Positions 5,860 through 59,424 of a stretch of DNA of 64,000 nucleotides are shown here, one piece after another. A program made the position numbers and the translations under genes. Each line of letters begins with the position of its first letter. Positions within the stretch are counted from its first letter, which is position 1. The stretch is from Clostridia bacterium (GTDB taxonomy: Bacteria > Bacillota > Clostridia > Oscillospirales > CAG-272), in the NCBI GenBank assembly GCA_017540175.1, contig JAFYBN010000125.1, forward strand, positions 6,108 to 70,107, in the 5' to 3' direction. The notes beneath the pieces were generated by a model. That model saw nothing but the letters and a program-made list of their open reading frames with translations. It was not told the origin of the DNA and did no database searches.

Positions 5860-5895
5860 AAACGGAGACGTCCCGAAGGACTCTCCGTTTTTTTG
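5860..5895. terminator. Bidirectional rho-independent terminator between convergent genes
   Basis: Stem CGGAGACGTCC / GGACTCTCCG with CGAA loop (5863-5887), flanked by an A-run upstream and TTTTTTT downstream. Confidence 0.8.
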
Positions 5896-5919
5896 TTGAA
5901 GGGGGACGTTGCTTTCCGG

Positions 5920-7119
5920 TCACAGTCTCTCAGCGACGGCGTTCAGGAATTCGAGCGTGGTGACTTTTTTCTTGGTCGGCAGTTTCGAAAGAAGCCAGAG
6001 GTCGCCGGTCATCACGCCGTCCTCGATGGTCTTGACGCACGCCGCCTCGAGCCGGTCGGCGAAGGCGCAGAGCTCGGGGAGCTCGTCCAGCTCGCCGCGC
6101 TTGCGGAGTGCGCCCGTCCACGCATAGATCGTGGCGACGCTGTTCGTGGAGGTCTCCTCGCCCTTGAGGTATTTGTAATAATGCCGCTGGACGGTGCCGT
6201 GCGCTGCCTCGTATTCGTACGCCCCGGTCGGGGAGACGAGCACGGAGGTCATCATGGCGAGCGAGCCGTACGCCGTTGCGAGCATGTCGCTCATGATGTC
6301 GCCGTCATAATTCTTGCACGCCCAGACAAATCCGCCCTCGCTGCGCACCACGCGGGCGACCGCGTCGTCGATCAGGGTATAGAAATACGTGATCCCGAGC
6401 TCTTCGAACTTTGCGCGGAACTCGTTTTCGTAAATCTGTGCCCAGATATCCTTGAAGCGGTGGTCGTAGGTCTTCGAGATGGTGTCCTTCGCCGCGAACC
6501 AGAGGTCCTGCTTCGTGTCGGCGGCATAGCGGAACGCGCACCGGGCAAAGCTCGAAATCGACGCGTCGGTGTTGTGGATGCCCTGCGCGATGCCCGCGGA
6601 ATTCTTAAATTCCTGAATGAGATGCCTCGTCTCGTTCCCCTCGGCGTCCGTGATGACGAGCTCGGCTTTGCCTCCGGCCGGGACCTTCGCCTCCACGTTC
6701 TTGTAGACGTCTCCGTAGGCGTGACGCGCTATGGTGATGGGCTTCTTCCAGGTCGGGAGGTAGGGCTCGATGCCTTTGACGAGGATGGGCGCGCGGAAGA
6801 CGGTCCCGTCCATGACGGCGCGAATGGTTCCGTTCGGAGATTTCCACATTTCCTTCAGTCCGTACTCCGTGACACGCGCGGCGTTGGGGGTGATGGTCGC
6901 GCACTTCACCGCAACGCCGTATTTCAGCGCCGCCTCGGCGGACTCGGTGGTCACGCGGTCGTCCGTCGCGTCCCGGTTTTTCAGCCCGAGGTCGTAGTAT
7001 TCGGTTTTGAGCTCCACATGGGGCTCGATGAGGATGTCCTTGATCCACTTCCAGATCACCCGGGTCATCTCGTCCCCGTCCATTTCGACGAGGGGCGTTT
7101 TCATCTGAATCTTCGCCAT
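5920..7119 (-). CDS. icd: NADP-dependent isocitrate dehydrogenase (about 400-aa homodimeric type)
   Basis: ATG 7119 lies 6 nt after AAGGAG (the track ORF begins one codon earlier at GTG 7122); AKIQMKTPLVEMDGDEMTRVIWKWIKD... matches this IDH family end to end. Confidence 0.92.
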   Translation of the reverse strand: MAKIQMKTPLVEMDGDEMTRVIWKWIKDILIEPHVELKTEYYDLGLKNRDATDDRVTTESAEAALKYGVAVKCATITPNAARVTEYGLKEMWKSPNGTIRAVMDGTVFRAPILVKGIEPYLPTWKKPITIARHAYGDVYKNVEAKVPAGGKAELVITDAEGNETRHLIQEFKNSAGIAQGIHNTDASISSFARCAFRYAADTKQDLWFAAKDTISKTYDHRFKDIWAQIYENEFRAKFEELGITYFYTLIDDAVARVVRSEGGFVWACKNYDGDIMSDMLATAYGSLAMMTSVLVSPTGAYEYEAAHGTVQRHYYKYLKGEETSTNSVATIYAWTGALRKRGELDELPELCAFADRLEAACVKTIEDGVMTGDLWLLSKLPTKKKVTTLEFLNAVAERL

Positions 7120-9386: not shown

Positions 9387-10604
9387 ATGAGGGTTTGCAC
9401 AAAGGTGACGCGCGCCGAACTCGGGGAACTGTTTTCTTCCCTCCGTCCCCGCATCGATCTTTCAGACACCTCCGTTTCTTCCACCGATAAAATAGCCGTT
9501 TTTCCCGGTTTCTGCGACGTGCACGTGCATTTTCGCGAACCGGGTTTTTCATATAAAGAGACCATCGCGACGGGCTCCCTCGCCGCCGCGCGCGGCGGAT
9601 ATACCGCCGTCTGCGCCATGCCGAACCTGAATCCGGTTCCCGATTCGCGCGAACACCTCGAAGAGGAGCTTCAGCTGATCCGGGACGGCGCGGTGATCGA
9701 CGTCCTTCCCTACGGCGCGCTGACCGTCGGAGAAAAGGGCGAGGCGCTCGCCGACCTTGAGGGAATGGCTCCCGACGCCGCCGCCTTTTCGGACGACGGA
9801 CGCGGGGTGCAGTCTGAGTCCCTCATGCGCGAGGCGATGATCCGGGCGAAATCTCTCGGAAAAATCGTCGCGGCGCACTGCGAGGACAATTCCCTGCTCC
9901 GGGGCGGATACATTCATGCGGGGGCGTATGCCGCGGCGCACGGACACCGGGGCATCGTCTCGGAAAGCGAATGGGGTCCGATCGCGCGCGATCTGCGTCT
10001 CGCGAAGGAGACGGGCTGCGCGTACCACGTCTGCCACATCTCCTGCCGGGAAAGCGTCGAGCTCATCCGGGCGGCGAAGGCTGAGGGCGTGGACGTGACC
10101 TGCGAGACCGCGCCGCATTACCTCCTTCTTGACGACAGCATGCTCGAGGAGGACGGACGGTTCAAAATGAATCCCCCGCTCCGCTCGGCAGGCGACCGCG
10201 AAGCGCTCGTCGAGGCGCTCGCGGACGGGACGGTCGACATGATCGCCACCGACCACGCGCCGCACTCCGCCGAAGAAAAGGCAAGGGGCCTCGAGAAAAG
10301 CGCGTTCGGCATCGTCGGGCTCGAGACGGCGTTCCCCGCGCTGTACACAGGTCTCGTGAAAACGGGGCTCATCTCCCTCGGGCGGCTGATCGAAGCGTTC
10401 GCATACGCGCCGCGGGAGCGATTCGGCATCGGGCTCGGGGAAAGCTATACGGTCTGGGATCTCGGCGAAGAATTCACCGTCGACCCCGCAGAATTTCTCT
10501 CGAAGGGCAGATCTACGCCGTTTGAAGGGCGTCGGTTTTCCGGAGTCTGCCTCAAAACGGTATGGAACGGAAAAACCGTCTGGGAACGGAAAACAAACGG
10601 CTGA
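9387..10604 (+). CDS. pyrC: Dihydroorotase
   Basis: 405 aa; metal-binding FPGFCDVHVHFREPG (HxH) and later DHAPH; GGAGG 5 nt before the ATG; first gene of the pyr cluster. Confidence 0.9.
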   Translation: MRVCTKVTRAELGELFSSLRPRIDLSDTSVSSTDKIAVFPGFCDVHVHFREPGFSYKETIATGSLAAARGGYTAVCAMPNLNPVPDSREHLEEELQLIRDGAVIDVLPYGALTVGEKGEALADLEGMAPDAAAFSDDGRGVQSESLMREAMIRAKSLGKIVAAHCEDNSLLRGGYIHAGAYAAAHGHRGIVSESEWGPIARDLRLAKETGCAYHVCHISCRESVELIRAAKAEGVDVTCETAPHYLLLDDSMLEEDGRFKMNPPLRSAGDREALVEALADGTVDMIATDHAPHSAEEKARGLEKSAFGIVGLETAFPALYTGLVKTGLISLGRLIEAFAYAPRERFGIGLGESYTVWDLGEEFTVDPAEFLSKGRSTPFEGRRFSGVCLKTVWNGKTVWERKTNG

Positions 10605-50237: not shown

Positions 50238-51524
50238 TCAAAGTCCCGTATAGCCGCCCGTCTCCGTGATTCGGCTTTGGACGGCCGTGGCGTCCGCTTG
50301 CTGTACGCACGTGCCGTTTTTGCGCGCGATCGCCGCGGCGATGCCCGCCGCCTCGCCCGTGGTCGAGCAGATGGGCATGATGCGGATCGACGCCTGGGCC
50401 TCGTGGGTCGCCGAAATGCAGCGCCCGCCGACGAGGAGGTTTTCGCACTCCTCCGCCTTCGGCGTGAGGGAGCGGTAGGGGATGGTGTACCAGGTGCCCT
50501 CGGCGAAATAATAATGGCTCGTGCCGGTCCCCTCCGGGTTGTGGATGTCGATGTCATAGTTTCCGGCGGCTATGGCATCCGGGAATTTCGTGCACGCGAC
50601 GAGGTCCTCCCCCGTGAGCACATACGCGCCGTCGAGCATGCGGCTTTCCCGCACGCCGATGCTTGCCGCCGTTTCGATGAGCTTCGCGTTCTCAAGTCCC
50701 GGGATTTGATTCTCGCGGAAGAAATCGAGCAGTTCTCTGACCTGCCGCCTTGCCTCCGCCTCCGCGCGGGAGACGTCGAAGGGATCGACCGGATTCAGCT
50801 TCACCACCCGCGTCGTGTTGAAGTGGAGCACGCCGTCGATGGGATAATCGAACACGAGGATGTTCTCGCGCGGATTGGAGAAGCGTCCCGCCTCGAGCCA
50901 TTCGCGGTGCAGGCGGCTCCACGTCTCACGGTTCGCGAAAAAGGTCTTTTTGTCGGCGTTCACCATGCGGAAGCACAGCGTCATCGGCTGGCAGAGATTG
51001 TCGCCCGGTCTGCCGAGCCTTGTGGACACGCCCGCCATGACGCAGAGATCGGCGTCCCCCGTCGCGTCGACGAACATGTCCGCGCAGAAGGTCAGCACGC
51101 CGGATTTCGTCGCGGCGTCGACCGAGACGATCCTTGCCCCTTCCTTCTTCACGCCGCAGAGCGTCGCGTGAAACAGGACCGTGACACCCGACTCCGCGGT
51201 TTTTTCGTCGAGGATGAGCTTCACGTCCTCGTCTAGGTACGAGCTGTCGCCGCGGATGCCGCCGCGCTCGCGCAGAGCGTCCACAAGCTCCCGCAGAAAG
51301 CCGCGGCTCAGCTCATGTCTGTGCCGCGCTCCGTTTTCGTCCGTCACCGTGGTGGTATAGGGCATGAAGGGGAAAATCAGATTCCCGGACAGCGCTCCGC
51401 CGAGCGATCCCGCCGCCTCGATGAGGAGCACCCGCTCGCCCATTCTCGCCGCCGCGACCGCCGCCGCGCAGCCGGTCAGGCCGCCGCCGACCACGATCAC
51501 ATCGTATTTGTTCTCACAAAGCAT
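50238..51524 (-). CDS. FAD-dependent oxidoreductase
   Basis: Inner start MLCENKYDVIVVGGGLTGCAAA (ATG 51524 after GGGAGG); dinucleotide-binding GxGxxG; own extended -10 TGtTATAAT (TATAAT at 51561-51556). Confidence 0.85.
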   Translation of the reverse strand: MLCENKYDVIVVGGGLTGCAAAVAAARMGERVLLIEAAGSLGGALSGNLIFPFMPYTTTVTDENGARHRHELSRGFLRELVDALRERGGIRGDSSYLDEDVKLILDEKTAESGVTVLFHATLCGVKKEGARIVSVDAATKSGVLTFCADMFVDATGDADLCVMAGVSTRLGRPGDNLCQPMTLCFRMVNADKKTFFANRETWSRLHREWLEAGRFSNPRENILVFDYPIDGVLHFNTTRVVKLNPVDPFDVSRAEAEARRQVRELLDFFRENQIPGLENAKLIETAASIGVRESRMLDGAYVLTGEDLVACTKFPDAIAAGNYDIDIHNPEGTGTSHYYFAEGTWYTIPYRSLTPKAEECENLLVGGRCISATHEAQASIRIMPICSTTGEAAGIAAAIARKNGTCVQQADATAVQSRITETGGYTGL

Positions 51525-51563
51525 CTCATGCCTCCCGTTATGTTTGTTTGATGCCATTATAAC

Positions 51564-51594
51564 AGAAAACCCCGGATATTGCAAGTATCCGGGG
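51564..51594 (-). terminator. Rho-independent terminator closing the nif-like operon
   Basis: Minus strand reads CCCCGGATA-CTTGCAA-TATCCGGGG followed by TTTTCTGTT, 17 nt after the hydF stop. Confidence 0.8.
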
Positions 51595-51611
51595 AAAAAG
51601 AGAAGTTCGAA

Positions 51612-52811
51612 TCAATCGTTCAAAACGGGTTTCAGCGCGCGGGAGAGGATGCCGTTCATCTCGGCGATGGCGACGCCGTAGTTCACCATGGGAACGCCCG
51701 CCTCGGCACATCGCGCCATGCGGCTTTTCATTTCCCGCTCGTTCAGCATGCACCCGCCGCAATGAACGACGACGCTGTATTCCGAGAGATCGTCCGGGAA
51801 CTCGCCGCCGGAGGTGAAGGAGAAGGACGGCTCGGCGTGGGAATAATTCCGGATCCACATGGGGAGCTTCACCGTGCCGATGTCTCCGCACTGCCGCCTG
51901 TGGGAGCATCCCTCGGCGATCAGCACGCGGTCCCCGTCCCCGAGGGAGCGCAGAGCCTCCGCGCCGCGCACGAGCGCGCCCAGCTCGCCCTTATACCGCG
52001 CGAACAGGATGGAGAACGAGGTGAGGGGCACGTCCTCTGGCACGAGCTTTGAGACCCGCGCGAACGCCTGCGAATCCGTGATGACGACGGCGGGCTTTTC
52101 ACAGAGCGACGCCAGAGCGCCGGGGAGCTCCGTGTCCCGGACGCAGACGACCGCCGCGCCCGCCTCGAGCAGGTCGCGGATGACCTGCTGCTGGGGCAAA
52201 ATCAACCGTCCCTTCGGCGCGGCGTCGTCGATGGGGATGACGAGCACGGCGCAGTCTCCCGGCTTCACGAGATCGGCGGCGACGTGCTTTTCGACCCGTC
52301 CCGCGGAGCCGAGCGCGGCGATTTTCGCCCGCAGCGCGTCGATCCCCTCTCCCGTGAGCGCGGAGACGGCGATCCCGTCTTCCACGGCTACGGATTCGAC
52401 CACGAGATCGCTCTTGTTGTATGCGATCACATACGGGATGTTTCTCTCCCGGAAGACGGCGAGCAGGGCGCGGTCATCATCGCCGAGCCCGACGGACGCG
52501 TCGACCGTCAGCACGGCGACGTCAACGCCGCTCATGGCCTGTTTCGCCCGCTCGACGCGCAGGGAGCCGAGCTCGCCCTCGTCGTCGATGCCGGGGGTGT
52601 CGATCAGCACAACGGGACCGAGCGGCAAAAGCTCCATCGCCTTCTTGACGGGGTCGGTCGTCGTGCCCTTCACGGGGGAGACGACGGCGATCTTCTGGTT
52701 TGCGACGGCGTTCATCAGGCTCGATTTCCCGGCGTTGCGCATGCCGAAAAAGCCGATGTGAACACGCTCGCCGGACGGGGCCTCGTTCAGGGACGCGAGA
52801 TTCTTTTCCAT
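51612..52811 (-). CDS. hydF: [FeFe]-hydrogenase-type maturation GTPase HydF
   Basis: 399 aa; GTPase motifs GMRNAGKSS, DTPG, NKSD; C-terminal cluster motif CSH...HCGGC (the CxH / HCxxC signature of HydF). Confidence 0.85.
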   Translation of the reverse strand: MEKNLASLNEAPSGERVHIGFFGMRNAGKSSLMNAVANQKIAVVSPVKGTTTDPVKKAMELLPLGPVVLIDTPGIDDEGELGSLRVERAKQAMSGVDVAVLTVDASVGLGDDDRALLAVFRERNIPYVIAYNKSDLVVESVAVEDGIAVSALTGEGIDALRAKIAALGSAGRVEKHVAADLVKPGDCAVLVIPIDDAAPKGRLILPQQQVIRDLLEAGAAVVCVRDTELPGALASLCEKPAVVITDSQAFARVSKLVPEDVPLTSFSILFARYKGELGALVRGAEALRSLGDGDRVLIAEGCSHRRQCGDIGTVKLPMWIRNYSHAEPSFSFTSGGEFPDDLSEYSVVVHCGGCMLNEREMKSRMARCAEAGVPMVNYGVAIAEMNGILSRALKPVLND

Positions 52812-52834
52812 ATGCCGATCCTTCCCTTTTCCGC

Positions 52835-53940
52835 TCAGAACGCCGAAGCGGCGGACGACGGGTCGAAGATGCGGTTCGCCTGTTCGTCGGTGAGCTCGAT
52901 GCCGAAGACCTCGCGGTAGTACGCCCTGGTCTCCGCCGTGATGTCGATGTCGGCGAAGAGTTCGGGATAGACGGTCTTCGCCATCCAGAGCAGCGTCACG
53001 GGCGTGTCGACGCCGCAGGTGTAGCTGCGGTACATGCCGAGGGGCATTTTATAGACCTTGCCGTTCTTCACGGCGTCGACCTCGCTCCAGTCGTAGTTGC
53101 CCACGGTGTTATTGATGAGATCGGCAGGTTTTGCGGGGTTGAAGTTCGTGATGAGGATCTTCTGCGGGTTCCACGCGTAGATCTGTTCCATCGTCACGGC
53201 GGTGGAATTGTCCGTTTCCATTTCCGAGCCGACGTTGTACGCGCCGACCGCGTCCGCCCACCACTGACCGAAGAAATGCCTGCCGGAGGTGGTGATGGTC
53301 GTTTCGTTGTACTGGAAGAGGAAGAACACTTTCTCAGCAGTGTCCAGCGCGGCAACTCTGTCCTGAACGCGCTGATACACGTCCGCGCTGTAGGTCTTGA
53401 CCTTTTCGGCGCGGTCCTTGTTCGCGGGGAAGATCTCGGAGAGCAGAAGGATCCAGTTGTTCAGGGTTTCGATGGCGTCGTAATCCCATTTGCCCGCGGC
53501 GACCGAGATGCCGGGGATGCCCGCGTTTTTGAGCTGTTCGCCGATCTGGGGCGTGCTGCCGTAGAAGACGACGTCGGGCTCGAGCTTCATGAGCTCTTCG
53601 ATGTTGACGGTCGTGCCGTCGATGAAGTCCGTTTTCGCGTCAAGGATCTCCGGATAGAGCTCGGAGAGCAGGCTGTTTTTCGCGGCGGTCATGCTCGGGG
53701 GAGCCATTCCGACGATCTTTTCGGCGGAATCGAAGAACACGGCGAGCACGCTCACGAGGGGGTAGATGTCACAGACGACGATGCGGTTGATCTCTGCGGG
53801 CACCTCGACGACGTTGCCGCGTGGTCGGTGACGGTCACTTTGCCGTCGGTCTTTTCGGTTTTACCCGCGCACCCGGCAAACGCGCCCGAGAGCATGAGGA
53901 CGGCGAGGAGTGCGGAAATGAGACGGAGGGAGGTTTTCAT
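52835..53940 (-). pseudogene. Chelate (iron-siderophore/cobalamin/heme type) ABC substrate-binding lipoprotein, frameshifted
   Basis: The signal peptide and lipobox ORF (53940..53752, MKTSLRLISALLAVLMLSGAFAGC) and the binding-domain ORF (53803..52835, ...VPAEINRIVV...) are in different frames. Restoring one G in GACCACGCGGC near 53817-53822 gives continuous ...VTVTDHAGNVVEVPAEINRIVV... Confidence 0.8.
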
Positions 53941-55112
53941 AAATCAAATTCCTTTCTGAACTTGTTGAAATCACGGATGAGGTCGGGAATATCCCGGCGG
54001 AACATACGCCCGGAAAAGCCCTCGTGCGGCAGCGGGACAAAGCGCGCCGTTTTCGGGACGATCGGGCGGTAGAGCGGATCGGCGATCACGGTTTCCGCGT
54101 TCTTGAGCAGGGGGGCGAGATCGTCCTCGTCAACCGCCATGGGGCAGCCGGACGCGGTGAGAAGCGGGTCGGTGTCGGTCGCGGAAACCGCGCGGGTGGG
54201 CACGCCGCTCTCAAGCGTCAGAGCGCGGGCGAGGGAGCATGCCGTCACGCCCTCGCCGATGACGACGCGGCGGGCGTCCGATTCTCCGATCCCGATCACG
54301 CGGCATTCTCCGTCATCCGCCGACTTGCGGAGCAGGGAAAAGAGTTCTTCGGCATACCGGTCGCCAACGGGCGTGCCGACGACGTACGGGGTGCCGAACC
54401 GCTCCTTCAGAACCTTTGCCGCGCCCATGCCCGCGCCGGACACGACGAGATTGACCGCCGCGGAGGCGCTTTTTTTGAGCTCGTCGAGGGACGAGCCCAT
54501 CGCCCAGCGGGAGAGGACGGAAAAGCCGTTTGCCTCAAGCAGGTCCTTCATGGCGGCGTCGGCGCCGAGGACGGAAAAATCGAGCGGGGTCAGTCCGAGA
54601 AGATTGACGGGGATGCCCTTTTGAACTGTTCCTTGATTGTCCTGCACGGTCACAAACCGTTCAGCGACCGCGGCGAGCGCCGCTGACGCGCCCCAGACAT
54701 AGGAGCGCATTCCGTTCGTGTCGAAGCCGAACGAGGGGATCCCCGTACGGTCTTCGATCTGCCGCGCGACCGCGGCGAAATCCACGCCGGTCATCATGGG
54801 AATCGGCGTTCCGGCGATCGCGACGAACGCGGGCTTCAGTTCCCGCGCGGCCTTCACGACGTCGCCGATCAGCTTTTCGTCGTCGCCGAGCATCGCCTCG
54901 ACCTCCGTCAGGGCGGAAATAAAGACAAGGCTGTCGTGATCGTACCAGCGCGGCTCGTCGTGGGTATTGTAGGTGGAATTGCATCCGGAGGCGTCGTGCA
55001 TGACGGTCATGCCGCCGAGCTCGAAGAGCGCCGACGCGACGCCGGAGGTGTCCCCCGCGTAGGTGGAGATGATCCTTGCAGTCTGCTTTACTGACATAAG
55101 CCGCACCCCCAT
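53937..55112 (-). CDS. Nitrogenase component 1-type oxidoreductase, beta-like subunit (NifK/BchB/BchZ-like)
   Basis: 391 aa; HDASGCNSTY cluster loop, AFVAIAGTPIP, overall Oxidored_nitro layout; start ATG 55112 or ATG 55097, both overlapping the upstream gene; TGA overlaps the next ATG. Confidence 0.8.
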   Translation of the reverse strand: MGVRLMSVKQTARIISTYAGDTSGVASALFELGGMTVMHDASGCNSTYNTHDEPRWYDHDSLVFISALTEVEAMLGDDEKLIGDVVKAARELKPAFVAIAGTPIPMMTGVDFAAVARQIEDRTGIPSFGFDTNGMRSYVWGASAALAAVAERFVTVQDNQGTVQKGIPVNLLGLTPLDFSVLGADAAMKDLLEANGFSVLSRWAMGSSLDELKKSASAAVNLVVSGAGMGAAKVLKERFGTPYVVGTPVGDRYAEELFSLLRKSADDGECRVIGIGESDARRVVIGEGVTACSLARALTLESGVPTRAVSATDTDPLLTASGCPMAVDEDDLAPLLKNAETVIADPLYRPIVPKTARFVPLPHEGFSGRMFRRDIPDLIRDFNKFRKEFDL

Positions 55113-56404
55113 CCCTTGATCCCGATGAGTCCCCGGGTGTCCTTTTCTTCAAGGAAGGCTTCGGTCATGAGCTCTGCCGTACGGATCACCGCGTCGAAGC
55201 CCCAAAGCCCGCCGTTTTCGACGACGTTCACAAAGTGCGGGGACGAGGTGAAGTAAGCGGCCTTCTGCCCGACGGCGAGCGTACGCGGATCGCCGTCCCG
55301 GGGCATGACGCGCATCGAGGGGTGCACCGTCGGCCAGATCATGAGCTGCGGCGCTTCGTGTTTCAGAGCTTCGAAATCCTCTTTTTCCTCCCCCGTGAAG
55401 GAGTCCGCGTAGATCCGCTTCACCCGGAAGCCATGCTTCAAAAGGAGCCGGGCAAGGCTCAGGGGACGGGAGAACGCCGTGTAATCGATCACGACGGGCA
55501 CGTCGCCGATCACCCGCTTCGCCTCCCGCATCGCCGCCTCACATTCCGCTCTATTCTGTGACCAGTCGGGGACGGGAATGCCGAGCGCGGCACAGAGCTT
55601 TTCGTACTGCGCTTCGATCTCGTCCGCGTCGAAGCTGAACGGGAGGTGGAGATGCTTCATGCCGTGCTTTTCGGCGAGCATTTTCCCGGCGGGAATCGCG
55701 GCGGGCTGGGTTGTCAGCGCGAACGCGGCGCGGGCGAGCTCAAGGTATTCGGAAAAGGTTTTCGCCTGCTGGATTTCGGAGTGCCGGAAGCCGTTTTCAC
55801 GGAGAAGAGCCGTGAAATCCCCTTCTTCGACGGCGAAATCCCCGCCGACGGAGAGGACGGTCTTCGGGTCGTGTTCCTTCGGATCGAGCAGGCTGTAAAG
55901 CTGACGCCGCATGAGCTGATCGGGCGTCAGACCGGATTTGCGCATGATGGGGTTCATATAGCAGTCCGTGAACCGCACGGAGGGAAAGCGTCTTCCGAGC
56001 TCCCCGTAGGCGAGCGTGAGATCGGTTCCCATGAAATGGTGGACGCAGCTCGTATAGACGAGCACGGCGGGCGGCAGGGACGGCAGTTTTTCGAGGATGT
56101 CCGTAACACCCTCGACGAGCAGATTTTCGAGATCGCCGTCAAGCACGTTGTTTTCGCGGACCGCCACGGTCGAAAAGCGCTCCGACGCGCCCATTTCCGC
56201 CGCGGTGAGCACCACGCCGCGCAGGCATCCCTGCGCGCAGACGAAGATCTCGTGCGCTTCGGGCACAAGCATGCCCGTGTGCGCGATGTTCCACGTTCCG
56301 CGTGCGGGAGCCGCGTATTCGAGCCCCGCGTCAAACGGCGCGGGGAAGGAAGCCTCCGATATGGGAAGGGGCTTTCCCTCTTTTTCGCCGAGCTTTCGGA
56401 TCAT
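55088..56404 (-). CDS. Nitrogenase component 1-type oxidoreductase, alpha-like subunit (NifD/BchN/BchY-like)
   Basis: 438 aa; N-terminal cysteines in FVCAQGCLRG and VYTSCVHHF; Oxidored_nitro-like three-domain layout; ATGA overlap with the nifH-like gene. Confidence 0.8.
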   Translation of the reverse strand: MIRKLGEKEGKPLPISEASFPAPFDAGLEYAAPARGTWNIAHTGMLVPEAHEIFVCAQGCLRGVVLTAAEMGASERFSTVAVRENNVLDGDLENLLVEGVTDILEKLPSLPPAVLVYTSCVHHFMGTDLTLAYGELGRRFPSVRFTDCYMNPIMRKSGLTPDQLMRRQLYSLLDPKEHDPKTVLSVGGDFAVEEGDFTALLRENGFRHSEIQQAKTFSEYLELARAAFALTTQPAAIPAGKMLAEKHGMKHLHLPFSFDADEIEAQYEKLCAALGIPVPDWSQNRAECEAAMREAKRVIGDVPVVIDYTAFSRPLSLARLLLKHGFRVKRIYADSFTGEEKEDFEALKHEAPQLMIWPTVHPSMRVMPRDGDPRTLAVGQKAAYFTSSPHFVNVVENGGLWGFDAVIRTAELMTEAFLEEKDTRGLIGIKGWGCGLCQ

Positions 56405-57162
56405 ATTCCCTCCTGTGCAGCTGCGATCACGGCGTCCGCGAGCGCGCGGTACTCAGCCGCGGTCTCGCTGTCCGGAAAAGCTTCGATCACGGTCTTCATG
56501 AGCTCTTCGGCGTCCGTCACCGTATCGCTGCGGCTGATCGAGCCGACGACGCGGGAGCCGATCTTCCCGGCGAGCGCGCCGACCTTTTCGTCCTCGTTTT
56601 TCACGTTCCGGCGGTTCAAAATCAGCCCGCCGAAGGTGGCGTAGCCGCGGTTTTTGAAACCGTCGACCGCCGCGGCGATGTTCTCGGCGGCGTGAAGCGA
56701 CATGTTCTCCCCGGAGGTCACGACGAAGACCTGTTCCGCGTAGCCGGGTCGCATGGGCATGGTGAAGCCGCCGCACACGACGTCGCCAAGCACGTCGTAA
56801 AAGACGACGTCCGGCTGATAGACCTCGTACGCTCCTTTTTCGCGGAGCTTTTCGAGCGCGGCAATGATCCCTCTTCCGGCACATCCCGTACCCGGCGCGG
56901 GACCGCCCGCCTCGACGCAGATCACGTCCGCGTACCCCCAGCAGGTCATGTCCGAGAGCGAGAAATCGTTTCCCCTCTCCCGCACGAGATCGAGCACGGA
57001 CGGCAGTTCCCGTCCGCCGCGCAGAAGAAGGGTGGAATCCGCCTTCGGGTCGCAGCCGATCTGCATAACGCTGAGGCCTCTTTCGCCCAGCGCCGCCGCG
57101 ACGTTTGCCGCCGTGGTCGATTTCCCGATGCCGCCCTTTCCGTAGATCGCGATTCGTTTCAT
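56401..57162 (-). CDS. NifH/BchL/CfbC-family ATP-dependent reductase (iron protein homologue)
   Basis: 253 aa; P-loop YGKGGIGKST, switch I GCDPKADST, cluster cysteines in GTGCAGRG and DVVCGGF. Confidence 0.9.
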   Translation of the reverse strand: MKRIAIYGKGGIGKSTTAANVAAALGERGLSVMQIGCDPKADSTLLLRGGRELPSVLDLVRERGNDFSLSDMTCWGYADVICVEAGGPAPGTGCAGRGIIAALEKLREKGAYEVYQPDVVFYDVLGDVVCGGFTMPMRPGYAEQVFVVTSGENMSLHAAENIAAAVDGFKNRGYATFGGLILNRRNVKNEDEKVGALAGKIGSRVVGSISRSDTVTDAEELMKTVIEAFPDSETAAEYRALADAVIAAAQEGI

Positions 57163-57980
57163 ATCTGTTCTCCTTTGTCCGCGTCATCCGCGAGCCGGAC
57201 CGGGAGGATCCCGCGGACCCTCGTCCCGTCCGCTTCAAACTCGCCGACGACCGTTTCGACGCCGAACGCCTCCCGGATGTGGTCCCGGGTGACGATGATG
57301 TCGGTTTCACCGAACAGGGCGCGCCCGTCTTTGCCGAGCAGAAGCGAACGGTCGGCGTGCTGCAGCGCGTGTTCGGGATAATGCGTATTGAAAATGACCG
57401 CCATGCCGCCCTTTGCGAGGGAGCGCAGCGTTTCGAGCACAATGAGCCGGTTTTTGAAATCGAGGTTCGATTCCGGCTCGTCCAAAATGAGAAGCTCCGG
57501 TTTCGCCGCGAGGGCGCGCGCGATGAGGACCATCTGCGCCTCTCCCCCGCTGAGCTCGTCGAACCGGCGTCCGAGCAGGGCGGAAATGCCGAGCTCTGCC
57601 GCGAGAGAACGCACGAAGCCGCGCTCCTCTTCTCCGGGGGAGGAGAAGACGCCGATCCGGCCCGTGCACCCGAGCAGGATCATGTCCTCGACGGCGAGGG
57701 AAACCGGATTGCCCCTTGCCTGCGGGACATAGGAGATCCGTCTCCAGAGCTGGCGGGACGGAATGCTTCCAAGCTCCGTGCCGTCGATGAGGGTGCGACC
57801 CGCGCTCCACGGCAGAAAGCCCGCCATACAGCGCAGCAGGGTCGTCTTCCCCGCCCCGTTGGGACCGAGAACGGCGACGAGCTGACCGGAGCTCACGGAA
57901 AAACTGAGCTCGGAAAGCACGGGCTTTCCTTTTTTGTACGCGAAGGACGCGTTTTCAACCGTCAGATTCACAGCCTCCAC
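57159..57980 (-). CDS. ABC transporter ATP-binding protein, FepC/FecE/BtuD type
   Basis: Walker A GPNGAGKTT, signature LSGGEAQ, Walker B LILDEPES; ATGA overlap with the nifH-like gene. Confidence 0.9.
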   Translation of the reverse strand: MEAVNLTVENASFAYKKGKPVLSELSFSVSSGQLVAVLGPNGAGKTTLLRCMAGFLPWSAGRTLIDGTELGSIPSRQLWRRISYVPQARGNPVSLAVEDMILLGCTGRIGVFSSPGEEERGFVRSLAAELGISALLGRRFDELSGGEAQMVLIARALAAKPELLILDEPESNLDFKNRLIVLETLRSLAKGGMAVIFNTHYPEHALQHADRSLLLGKDGRALFGETDIIVTRDHIREAFGVETVVGEFEADGTRVRGILPVRLADDADKGEQI

Positions 57981-58987
57981 CCCTCCGTTCTGCGCATGAG
58001 ATAAATGAAGAACGGCGCGCCGATGACGGCGGTCAGGATCGAGACCGGCAGATCGGACGCGGTCATGGACCGCGCGGCGGTATCAACAACCGTGAGGAAG
58101 CCCGCCCCAATGAAGACCGACGCCGGGAGCAGGGAGAGCTGGTTCGATCCCCATTTCATCCGGCAGATGTGGGGGACGAGCAGTCCGACCCACCCGACCT
58201 GTCCGCACATGGAGACGACGGACGCAGTCATGACGGCGGCGCATCCGATCACCGTGCCGCGCAGAAGCTTCAGATTGACCCCCGCGGCGCGCGCCTCGTC
58301 CTCGCTCAGCGGGAGCAGGTTCATCCGCCAGCGCAGAAGCAGGAGCACGGTGAGTCCGATCAGGATGGGCGGCGCGCCGAGCAGCAGCTCGCCGTACCCC
58401 GCGGAGCCGAGATTGCCCATCAGCCAATAGGTGATGGCGGGGAGCTCGGATTCGGTATCCGCCGTCAGCTTCGCCCACGAAACGAGGGCGTTGAACAGGG
58501 AGCCGATCATGATGCCCGCGAGCACCGTGCCGCTCAGTCCCCTTCCCGCTCTTCCGGAGCCCGTAAGGGTCGTGAGCAGGATCGCCAAAATGCCGAAGCC
58601 GAGCGCGAAGAGCTGGATGCCGACGAGCTTCATGCCGCAGAGCATTCCGAGCGCCGCGCCGAACGACGCGCCGGACGCCACGCCGAGAGTGTCGGGCGTT
58701 GCGAGGGGGTTTGAAAACAGGCTTTGGAACGAGCATCCTGCGGCGGAAAGCCCCGCTCCGGCGAGCATGGCGAGCAGGATGCGCGGGAGCCGCACATGCC
58801 ACAGTGTCGATTCCACAAAGCCGGACGGCAGCGATCCCCCCGTCAGGTGCCCGACGACGGAATGCCACAGATCGGCGGGCGTGACGGAATACCGCCCGAT
58901 CATGAGCGCGCACAGCCCCGCGATCACGGGGATGAACGGCAGGATGATCGCCGCGGGGCGGACGCGTCTTTTTTTCTTTTCGTTCAT
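57968..58987 (-). CDS. FecCD-family chelate ABC transporter permease
   Basis: 339 aa, about 9-10 TM helices; typical FecCD/BtuC pattern (RLPRILLAMLAGAGLSAAG, ATPDTLGVASGASFGA). Confidence 0.9.
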   Translation of the reverse strand: MNEKKKRRVRPAAIILPFIPVIAGLCALMIGRYSVTPADLWHSVVGHLTGGSLPSGFVESTLWHVRLPRILLAMLAGAGLSAAGCSFQSLFSNPLATPDTLGVASGASFGAALGMLCGMKLVGIQLFALGFGILAILLTTLTGSGRAGRGLSGTVLAGIMIGSLFNALVSWAKLTADTESELPAITYWLMGNLGSAGYGELLLGAPPILIGLTVLLLLRWRMNLLPLSEDEARAAGVNLKLLRGTVIGCAAVMTASVVSMCGQVGWVGLLVPHICRMKWGSNQLSLLPASVFIGAGFLTVVDTAARSMTASDLPVSILTAVIGAPFFIYLMRRTEGWRL

Positions 58988-59241
58988 TCTTTTGAGATAA
59001 CGCCGGAATAGGCGGTTTTAACGCTCACGCCGTCGAGGCGTCCGATTTTGCCGGAGAGCGCTGCGATTTTGTCCTGCGGGGCGTCCAGCGCGATGGAGAT
59101 GATGCTCACGCCGCGCCTGCGGTACGGGATGCCCATTCTTCCGATGATATATTCGCCGGTTTCATGCAGAAGCGAATTCAGCGCTTCGACCGAGGCGGCG
59201 TTCTCGACGATGATGCTCATGACGGCGACTCTGGTTTCCAT
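58984..59241 (-). CDS. TM1266-like small ACT/NikR-C-like protein (annotated elsewhere as putative iron-only hydrogenase system regulator)
   Basis: 85 aa; VAVMSIIVENAASVEALNSLLHE...IIGRMGIPY...IALDAPQDKIAALSGKIGRLDGVSVK follows the pattern I recall for the TM1266 family; first gene of the operon, ATGA overlap with the permease. Confidence 0.65.
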   Translation of the reverse strand: METRVAVMSIIVENAASVEALNSLLHETGEYIIGRMGIPYRRRGVSIISIALDAPQDKIAALSGKIGRLDGVSVKTAYSGVISKE

Positions 59242-59395
59242 GTTGACCTCCGAACAAAAAACTGCCGTGCTCTCACTGAAAGCACGGCAGCGCGAAAACT
59301 CCGGTATGACCGGGATATCACCTGTGTCCGCCGCCTTTCAGTCAGAACGTATCTTTCTGTCAGGCCCCGCGGCGATGTGCCGCGGCGACGGTGAT
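59242..59395 (-). promoter_or_regulatory. Structured 5' leader with terminator/antiterminator alternatives (candidate riboswitch or attenuator)
   Basis: About 150 nt between the -10 and the ATG. Contains a GC hairpin CCGCGGC-ACATC-GCCGCGG (59367-59385), a tandem CUGACNGAAAG repeat, and a helix GUCGCCG (59389-59383) / CGGCGGAC (59333-59326). An antiterminator strand (59342-59328) is complementary to the terminator 5' arm (59290-59275); the terminator is 59255-59290. Confidence 0.6.
59255..59290 (-). terminator. Leader terminator upstream of the nif-like operon
   Basis: Minus strand reads CTGCCGTGCT-TTCAGTGAG-AGCACGGCAG followed by TTTTTTG, ending 13 nt before the ATG and just upstream of the GGAGG RBS. 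Confidence 0.8.
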
Positions 59396-59424
59396 AGTAT
59401 AACCCGCTTTTTCAAAAAAGTCAA
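59396..59424 (-). promoter_or_regulatory. SigmaA-type promoter of the nif-like operon
   Basis: Minus strand reads TTGACT (59424-59419), 17-nt spacer, TATACT (59401-59396). Confidence 0.6.

Follow-up and report, generated by a model that had tools for sequence, protein, structure and literature searches.

The window analysed here comprises 64,000 nucleotides of contig JAFYBN010000125.1 from a Clostridia bacterium of the order Oscillospirales (GenBank assembly GCA_017540175.1). On its minus strand, positions 51562–59424 contain eight tightly coupled genes, preceded by a single promoter with a structured leader and closed by a terminator, an operon that brings a three-gene nitrogenase-like enzyme (H, D and K) together with a FecCD-type ATP-binding cassette (ABC) importer, a TM1266-like protein and HydF. 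We show below that this gene order recurs in many genomes and that the leader RNA also precedes operons for the H-cluster maturases HydE, HydG and HydF of [FeFe]-hydrogenase, and we discuss the tentative reading that importer and reductase supply H-cluster assembly. The features of the operon are as follows.

59396–59424, minus strand: sigma-70-type promoter, TTGACT-17 nt-TATACT (consensus scan, 10/12 matches)
59321–59368, minus strand: conserved leader hairpin of three helices with purine-rich internal loops (covariance model R1, 37.7 bits, E = 3e-6)
59325–59342, minus strand: antiterminator strand, formed by the 3′ half of the hairpin and bases downstream of it (predicted to pair with the leader terminator at its 5′ arm and loop)
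59254–59291, minus strand: intrinsic terminator of the leader, 14-bp stem and T run, directly ahead of the first gene's ribosome-binding site and start codon
58984–59241, minus strand: TM1266-like ACT-fold protein, 85 aa (PF21699, 108 bits; TIGR03959, 113 bits vs cutoff 60.8)
57968–58987, minus strand: FecCD-family permease of a type II ABC importer, 339 aa (PF01032, 266 bits)
57159–57980, minus strand: ATPase of the ABC importer, 270–273 aa (ABC_tran)
56401–57162, minus strand: NifH-like predicted ATPase and electron donor, 253 aa (Fer4_NifH, 286 bits)
55088–56404, minus strand: D-like Oxidored_nitro subunit, 438 aa (profile match and structure model)
53937–55112, minus strand: K-like Oxidored_nitro subunit, 391 aa (profile match)
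52835–53940, minus strand: Peripla_BP_2 substrate-binding lipoprotein, frame-split here (profile match)
51612–52811, minus strand: HydF, 399 aa, GTPase and scaffold protein of [FeFe]-hydrogenase maturation (TIGR03918, 536 bits vs cutoff 325.6)
51562–51594, minus strand: operon terminator, 9-bp stem and T run (placed at 51594–51570 by the consensus scan)

The open reading frame (ORF) listing of the window reproduced all ORF coordinates of a first-pass annotation made from the sequence alone, and the family assignments proposed there for the TM1266-like, FecCD, ATPase, NifH-, NifD- and NifK-like, lipoprotein and HydF genes hold in profile searches, the two D/K proteins scoring 66 and 98 bits against Oxidored_nitro. 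The promoter and the terminator behind hydF described at that stage were both recovered by consensus scan, which returned two promoter-like sites over the region against 1.1 expected. Its count of nine genes has to be lowered to eight, because a 1-nt deletion in a G run near 53819 breaks the binding-protein gene into ORFs 53752–53940 and 52835–53803. This deletion is defined against four near-identical metagenome contigs (1155 of 1156 nt identical), in which the reading frame is uninterrupted and yields a protein of 368 aa, and the frame break would be either a very recent lesion, making the copy a pseudogene, or an assembly error.

As first described, and as follows from the ORF coordinates, neighbouring genes overlap by 4 nt (ATGA) at 58987/58984, 57162/57159, 56404/56401 and 53940/53937, the D and K genes overlap by 25 nt (55112/55088), and a gap of 23 nt separates the stop codon of the binding-protein gene from hydF. 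The 13-nt overlap claimed at 57980/57968 requires a GTG start of the ATPase gene; in the near-identical contigs the start is called three codons later, which gives a 4-nt overlap with the permease gene instead. Chance juxtaposition and an assembly chimera were rejected as explanations of the locus: it is present with an identical D protein in four independent metagenome assemblies, and its gene order recurs across families. In agreement with the first-pass annotation, hydE, hydG and hydA were not found in the 64-kb window, HydA having been sought by its signature motifs.

Recurrence of the gene cluster

The D protein has at least 2564 homologues, and scanning a single genome from each species with a pattern brought up 455 loci that encode a relative. 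Most carriers are Oscillospiraceae, Lachnospiraceae and Peptostreptococcaceae from the rumen or gut, among them the cultured Intestinibacter bartlettii. Eighty of the homologous loci were fetched with their flanks for gene-order analysis, and every one of sufficient length had the order TM1266-FecCD-ATPase-[HydE]-H-D-K-SBP-[HydF], where SBP is the substrate-binding protein and the bracketed genes are present in part of the loci. The objection that the arrangement might be unique to this assembly fails because the gene order recurs so widely.

HydE, where present, sits between the ATPase and the NifH-like gene. Of the 44 loci covered at both ends, 24 encode both HydE and HydF, 5 HydE only, 5 HydF only, which is the type of the window locus, and 10 neither. 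Since relatives also carry HydE within the cluster, the association with maturases is stronger than it appears from the window alone. The pairing of HydF with importer and nitrogenase-like genes, to which the first-pass annotation had drawn attention, is thus a real and recurrent operon, but HydF is not an isolated oddity in it, HydE being present in most relatives. HydG was never inside the cluster in the 80 fetched loci, HydA signature motifs were absent within 10 kb of these 80 genome loci, and ORF clustering over the same flanks (within 10 kb) revealed no further recurring gene family.

A complete cluster including the leader RNA was also found in a metagenome-assembled genome (MAG) of Flexilinea sp. 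(Chloroflexota, L021), with a D protein 60% identical to that of the window; unless the MAG was wrongly binned, this copy would have arrived by horizontal transfer of the entire unit.

A sister clade, whose D proteins are 28–30% identical, has clusters of six genes (H, D, K, binding protein, FecCD permease and ATPase) from which TM1266, HydE and HydF are absent. That nitrogenase-like genes and FecCD importer stay together there without any Hyd genes suggests that importer and reductase are an old functional unit. No RNA element was detected at sister-clade loci L207 (1205–1230), L208 (~700–730) and L209 (8155–8190), where TTAG...CTAA palindromes lie over promoter-like sequences; the palindromes resemble DtxR/IdeR operators, a weak hint of metal control. 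A Fe_dep_repress gene lies 5 kb upstream at L209.

A conserved RNA in the operon leader

The leader (59245–59395, minus strand) folds with −70.3 kcal/mol (z = −4.9), and the hairpin, which reads GCCU-GA-CAG-AA-AGA...UCU-GA-CUG-AA-AGGC in the window, is part of the minimum-free-energy fold. Most homologous leaders share the consensus yCUGA-stem-rAAA...UGA-stem′-rAAGr. In an alignment of 33 distinct leaders, 89% of the cells in the three-helix hairpin were paired, compared with at most 50% when the partner columns were slid, and 35 cells were changed on both sides, compared with 11.5 ± 2.9 in shuffled alignments, none of 500 shuffles reaching 35. The RNAalifold prediction agrees closely, giving the outer helix, P3 and all but one of the four pairs of P2. 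The covariance model matched about 55 of 68 loci, on the gene strand and just upstream of the cluster, with two matches at three loci. It gave a single match in the window (59321–59368) and, elsewhere in 1.2 Mb, one marginal match in the flank of L017 (16.9 bits, E = 0.96).

The antiterminator duplex of the window has −22.0 kcal/mol against −9.9 kcal/mol for shuffled strands (z = −4.4), and across loci the antiterminator paired with its own terminator 5′ arm at a mean z of −2.2, with z < −1 in 28 of 30 loci. These z values come from shuffles of the pairing strand; a cross-locus control was uninformative, as the terminators share sequence. Because hairpin, antiterminator and terminator are mutually exclusive, stabilisation of the hairpin should switch transcription off, a direction that we infer from the architecture. 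With its covarying structure placed on an antiterminator/terminator platform, the leader has the predicted architecture of an attenuator or riboswitch. Off-type riboswitches (cobalamin, thiamine pyrophosphate (TPP), molybdenum cofactor (Moco)) and protein-dependent attenuators (hutP, pyrR) likewise combine a conserved element, its 3′ half set against an antiterminator, with an intrinsic terminator. Compared with these, the present leader is small (conserved hairpin of ~33 nt), has GA-rich internal loops and finds no match in Rfam 15, and TM1266, a candidate effector, almost always occupies the first gene position behind it.

The absence of Rfam 15 matches extends to the window, the window leader at E ≤ 10, the leaders of seven relatives, the leader of the canonical maturation operon and the sister-clade loci; neither a cobalamin riboswitch nor any other known riboswitch was found at the operon in these scans. 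A full-text literature search retrieved no description of the leader RNA or of the gene cluster. We therefore regard the leader as a well-supported and apparently undescribed cis-regulatory RNA, as judged from covariation and folding. Second copies of the element lie between TM1266 and FecCD genes at L040 (5952–6001) and L041 (5973–6022), and two tandem copies were found at L086 (2623–2738), which recalls operons with several attenuators.

Genes behind the leader RNA

A motif-pattern scan of metagenome contigs located the element at no fewer than 120 loci. The first gene behind it was recognisable at 114 of these; L093, which has short unrecognised ORFs alone behind the element, and five stretches that were too short were left unclassified. 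The first genes were distributed as follows.

TM1266: 90 of 114 loci
HydE: 10 of 114 loci
HydF: 9 of 114 loci
SsuA-like binding protein: 3 of 114 loci
FecCD: 1 of 114 loci
HydG: 1 of 114 loci

Canonical TM1266-hydE-hydG-hydF operons (HydE 606 bits, HydG 938 bits) are among the units behind the element. Further architectures are TM1266 with a FecCD-type importer alone, the nitrogenase-like clusters, HydE-H-D-K operons that lack the importer and follow the element directly, and hydG, hydE or hydF alone. The occurrence of the same RNA before hydE-hydG-hydF operons places the window operon in the H-cluster-maturation regulon. From its distribution, the element is a marker of a predicted regulon of H-cluster maturases, TM1266, two kinds of importer and the nitrogenase-like enzyme, and we consider this sharing the strongest evidence that would tie the operon functionally to [FeFe]-hydrogenase cofactor assembly. 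In cofactor regulons such as those for B12, TPP and Moco, an off-type element usually governs biosynthesis genes and importers alike.

The second importer type of the regulon, an ABC system of the SsuA/NrtA family with its binding protein, permease and ATPase, occurs with TM1266 behind the element at L124, L109, L154, L200, L104 and some 35 further loci from metagenomes. The best solved relative of its SsuA-type binding protein is 3HN0, annotated as ‘nitrate transport protein’. HydA signature motifs were found near only two of the TM1266-SsuA-type loci, L127 (~5890–6320) and L192 (~10220–10400).

The nitrogenase-like enzyme

By encoding a Fer4_NifH protein together with two Oxidored_nitro proteins, H-D-K qualifies at the level of protein families as a member of the nitrogenase superfamily in the broad sense. 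In the NifH-like protein, the P-loop GKGGIGKS and both [4Fe-4S] cysteines (C94, C130) are invariant, and its scores stay below the NCBIfam cutoffs for nifH (316.5 vs 394) and CfbC (316.8 vs 402). The D protein has four invariant cysteines (C56, C60, C120, C148) and a C-terminal GCGxC motif, and the K protein has C44 as its single invariant cysteine.

Searched as single sequences against solved chains, D reached a best E-value of only 0.4, and K matched NifE at E = 2e-7. A D-family profile built from 62 members found NifE as the best solved structure (E = 2e-17, nearly full length), followed by VnfD (1e-13), the 519-aa ‘Nitrogenase’ chains of the methylthio-alkane reductase entries 9FMG and 9D9U (4e-10) and, as the weakest match, ChlN/BchN (3e-6). 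The AlphaFold 2 (AF2) model of D has a nitrogenase component-1 fold (predicted local distance difference test, pLDDT, 94) and lies about equally far from NifN, NifK, NifE, VnfK, MarD/K and ChlN/BchN, with template-modelling scores (TM-scores) of 0.57–0.67 and 12–16% identity. By these measures the predicted D/K pair is deep-branching and falls outside every solved nitrogenase-family group. C120 of D aligns with the cluster cysteine of NifE. At the column of NifE C250/NifD C275 there is no cysteine in D, and the His442 position is N393 in a manual alignment.

The resulting set of three cysteines in D and one in K suits a single [4Fe-4S] cluster between the subunits, of the kind found in NifEN, DPOR or CfbCD, and D/K probably holds such a cluster, its type being deduced from the ligand positions. 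The same predicted set excludes a P-cluster and an iron-molybdenum cofactor (FeMo-co). Natural D-K fusions in one chain (P0136, 850 aa; P0165, 888 aa; P0191, 1010 aa) support a D/K complex.

NifDK with its V and Fe counterparts, NifEN, DPOR/COR, CfbCD and the Mar, Isr and Nfa groups were considered one by one and rejected. For NifDK, VnfDK and AnfDK, the six P-cluster cysteines and the Cys275/His442 ligands are not kept, and the nifD score is 46 bits against a cutoff of 654. For NifEN, K scores 60.6 bits on nifE (cutoff 505), D reached E = 0.001 with neither nifE nor nifN, and the L-cluster cysteine is missing. Scores for DPOR and COR are below the cutoffs (BchL 183 vs 345; BchN 25–32 vs 324–420; BchB 50 vs 490); in place of the aspartate ligand of the B subunit (Asp36 of BchB), K may offer a cysteine in an HDxxGC motif. 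In addition to the CfbC score, CfbCD is contradicted by the score of K on CfbD (22 vs 268) and by the presence of two different D/K genes, CfbD being homomeric. For MarBHDK, IsrBHDK and NfaBHDK, the sole radical S-adenosylmethionine (SAM) gene in the clusters is HydE, and there are too few cysteines for P-like plus L-like clusters. The first-pass annotation had already suspected a superfamily member outside NifDK, NifEN, DPOR, COR, CfbCD and Mar, and the curated cutoffs and defining ligands bear this out; the finding that would have spoken against it, D/K nested within NifDK or NifEN with FeMo-co ligands, was not made, the Cys275/C250 position being non-Cys and the cutoffs missed.

The ABC importer

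The best solved relative of the permease is HI1471/MolB (217.5 bits), ahead of FhuB (173), the heme permeases (134–142) and BtuC (128). HI1470/MolC is the best-matching importer nucleotide-binding domain for the ATPase (125 bits). The binding protein matches 4OVK best (162 bits), followed by HI1472/MolA (76.6), and the Ni-binding CeuE of H. pylori (47); matches to IsdE (35) and BtuF (21) are marginal. Among functionally characterised solved structures, each of the three parts is thus closest in sequence to MolBC-A. MolBC-A (HI1470/HI1471/HI1472) of Haemophilus influenzae imports molybdate and tungstate. No siderophore- or heme-binding signature was recognised. The relationship to MolBC-A makes a small metal species no less likely than a bulky chelate as the imported compound. 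The first-pass statement that nif accessory and Mo-transport genes are missing has to be divided: nifB, nifE, nifN and nifV were not recognised in the window, where the ORFs outside the operon were not scanned against family models, but ‘no Mo-transport gene’ is unsafe because the importer parts are closest to MolBC-A.

Some 60 of the 72 ATPases of relatives carry a C-terminal TM1266-like domain that is 37% identical to the free TM1266 protein, a regulatory domain that MolC lacks; the ATPase of the window lineage is without it. Because TM1266 is nearly always the first gene behind the RNA and its domain is fused to the importer ATPase, it is a good candidate for the sensor, be it for the importer alone or also for the RNA. 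The free and ATPase-fused forms recall ModE/ModC or MetJ/MetN.

TM1266, HydF and HydE

The TM1266-like protein matches PDB entry 2NZC at E = 2e-12. HydF has its GTPase, HydF_dimer and HydF_tetramer domains (Pfam) and the cluster motif CxH...HCxxC, read as EGCSH...HCGGC in the translation. The radical-SAM gene of the relatives encodes bona fide HydE (522–540 bits vs cutoff 254.6). Cluster-linked HydF and HydE are 64.5% and 61.9% identical within their group, compared with 49.7% and 57.0% to the copies of TM1266-hydEGF operons (loci L001–L086 vs L087–L206), which suggests that they form a distinct subfamily travelling with the cluster across bacterial families. HydE in the cluster, together with a leader shared with maturase operons, links the operon to H-cluster maturation as a system.

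Putative function

We interpret the operon as one transcription unit of a widespread, uncharacterised cluster family within the H-cluster-maturation regulon, in which importer and reductase would feed HydE and HydF; we hold this reading tentatively and rate it a little below an even chance. The importer would bring in a small metal species, most likely a hard-to-reduce iron complex and possibly a metal oxyanion. The NifH-like protein would spend ATP to pass low-potential electrons through the D/K [4Fe-4S] cluster onto the imported species, and the reduced product would pass to HydE and HydF, the branch in which the [2Fe] subcluster is put together. TM1266, as a free protein and as a domain fused to the ATPase, would sense a product and throttle import, and the leader hairpin, stabilised by a ligand or by TM1266 itself, would turn the whole regulon off. 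A variant that we judge unlikely makes importer and reductase a hitherto unrecognised branch of [FeFe]-hydrogenase cofactor biogenesis, serving as a salvage or alternative supply route, in which an imported iron species, perhaps a preformed organometallic or partly assembled precursor, would be reduced on a NifEN-like scaffold and enter at HydE/HydF, bypassing HydG, with the leader RNA, alone or with TM1266, sensing an H-cluster precursor; the regulon would then be a cofactor regulon comparable to those of B12, TPP or Moco.

Several observations weigh against a supply of HydE and HydF by importer and reductase. Ten of the 44 clusters have neither maturase and the sister clade has no Hyd link at all, which implies that the core module can work without maturases in cis. 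We know of no requirement for a nitrogenase-like protein in defined in-vitro H-cluster maturation. An off-switch responding to iron sufficiency would be an odd control for maturases. The separate similarity group of cluster-linked HydE and HydF would also fit specialised paralogues. On the side of the importer, the closest relative of the binding protein, 4OVK, is an unnamed structural-genomics protein without assigned ligand, and the similarity to MolA is only remote.

An alternative is a more general role in iron or metal acquisition, in which a very stable chelate would be imported and reduced to release its metal, HydE/HydF and TM1266 being co-regulated passengers, as maturation is a large iron consumer. 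The six-gene module without Hyd genes in the sister clade, the DtxR/IdeR-like palindromes there and the Fe_dep_repress gene near one of these loci all fit, as do the 10 clusters without HydE/HydF in cis and the operons of TM1266 and importer only. The window operon, however, has an RNA shared with hydE-hydG-hydF in front of it instead of an operator of metalloregulator type, the HydE and HydF genes are interspersed within the cluster rather than appended, no siderophore- or heme-binding signature was recognised, and the permease is nearer to MolB than to FhuB, HmuU or BtuC; we consider general metal acquisition rather unlikely on balance. The first-pass annotation had proposed ATP-driven reduction of an imported metal chelate or tetrapyrrole. 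The pairing of reductase and importer in this proposal stands, but nothing in the riboswitch searches, the D profile or the fold distances specifically favours a tetrapyrrole. An enzyme that reduces or remodels imported tetrapyrroles such as heme, corrinoids or chlorophyll derivatives, after the manner of DPOR, COR and CfbCD, would have precedent in the several nitrogenase-like enzymes with a single [4Fe-4S] cluster that act on tetrapyrroles (Chem Rev 2026, PMC13474568) and in the heme and B12 systems among FecCD/Peripla_BP_2 importers, and such compounds are abundant in the gut and rumen where the hosts live. We nevertheless give this explanation a low probability: there is no known riboswitch, cobalamin included; BtuF (21 bits) and IsdE (35 bits) are matched far less well than MolA/MolB; the D profile prefers NifE (2e-17) to BchN (3e-6), and K reaches 22 on CfbD (cutoff 268); the flanks show no recurring genes of tetrapyrrole pathways; and the regulon shared with HydE/G/F would go unexplained.

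The direction of service might also be reversed, HydE and HydF (and, through the regulon, HydG) building an organometallic or otherwise unusual iron cofactor for D/K, as NifB does for NifDK, with import supplying the substrate. HydE lies directly upstream of the NifH-like gene, as nifB-like genes do in Mar, Isr and Nfa clusters, HydE-H-D-K operons without importer sit directly behind the RNA element, cluster-linked HydE and HydF form a similarity group of their own, and C148 and the GCGxC motif of D go beyond the needs of an interface cluster. Yet HydE and HydF score far above their equivalog cutoffs, like ordinary maturases, neither is found in cis in 10 of the 44 clusters or anywhere in the sister clade, and HydG is never in the cluster, so that we find a reversed client doubtful. 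The proximity of the importer to MolBC-A, and NifE as the best match of both D and K, might point to a genuine nitrogenase or to a FeMo-co assembly scaffold of NifEN type, supplied with molybdate by the importer. We regard this as very improbable in view of the E-value of 0.4 for single-sequence D to every solved chain, the nif equivalog scores below cutoff, the 3 + 1 cysteines at P-cluster positions alone with a non-Cys residue at NifD C275/NifE C250, the nifB, nifE, nifN and nifV genes unrecognised in the window (within the limits of the scan given above) and the lack of any recurrent family in the 80 flanks.

Comparison with known systems

The enzyme would work like a two-component ATP-driven reductase of the NifH/NifEN or DPOR type while belonging, by its sequence, to none of the groups rejected above. 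It has the three-component layout of NifH/NifEN, NifE as best profile match, 3 + 1 cysteines like those of the NifEN interface [4Fe-4S] cluster and D-K fusions as known for NifEN, but only 12–16% identity, no L-cluster cysteine and neither a NifB partner nor nif genes around it, importer and maturases standing there instead. DPOR and COR (group V) and CfbCD (group IV-B) likewise pair a NifH-type reductase with D/K proteins that lack FeMo-co ligands, and they share the single [4Fe-4S] cluster that is probable for the present enzyme. MarBHDK (IV-C) and IsrBHDK (IV-F) are also linked to an ABC importer, which is of the sulfonate type in contrast to the FecCD/MolBC type here, and the radical-SAM partner in Mar, Isr and Nfa (IV-A) is a NifB homologue, whereas here it is HydE. 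The suite of B12- and HemN-type radical-SAM genes of group VI Nfl (Elusimicrobia) has no counterpart around these clusters. With the canonical TM1266-hydE-hydG-hydF operon, the cluster shares TM1266, HydF and, in relatives, HydE at equivalog level as well as the leader RNA with its terminator; it differs in lacking HydG and in having the nitrogenase-like enzyme and importer interleaved with the maturase genes.

Few nitrogenase-like enzymes have been assigned, and each assignment (F430 synthesis, methylthio-alkane reduction, isethionate reduction) revealed new chemistry. The H-cluster pathway is not known to need more than HydE, HydF and HydG besides housekeeping proteins. The present clade, whose gene context is exceptionally full and uniform, branches deeply, is found in hundreds of gut and rumen species and is tied physically and by regulation to the H-cluster machinery; if this link is functional, it would add components to hydrogenase maturation in the dominant H2 producers of animal guts and give the orphan TM1266 family a role. 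The leader RNA defines a testable regulon, and its effector would be a direct handle on what the system senses. A 2026 review (Chem Rev, PMC13474568) divides nitrogenase-like proteins into groups IV-A to F, V and VI, with sulfur and tetrapyrrole contexts only, and finds most clades without function and gene context of little help so far; a context of importer and Hyd maturases is not mentioned in it. What the locus adds is thus a nitrogenase-like enzyme in an unprecedented genomic context, together with a cis-regulatory RNA that appears to be new, with bearing on the fields of nitrogenase-like enzymes, hydrogenase maturation and riboswitches.

Downstream end of the operon

A promoter-like sequence, TTGCAA-17-TATAAT with a TG extension (51556–51584, minus strand), is embedded in the terminator behind hydF. 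It lies just upstream of a gene for a flavin adenine dinucleotide (FAD)-dependent oxidoreductase (~50238–51524), which is kept only in the closest relatives.

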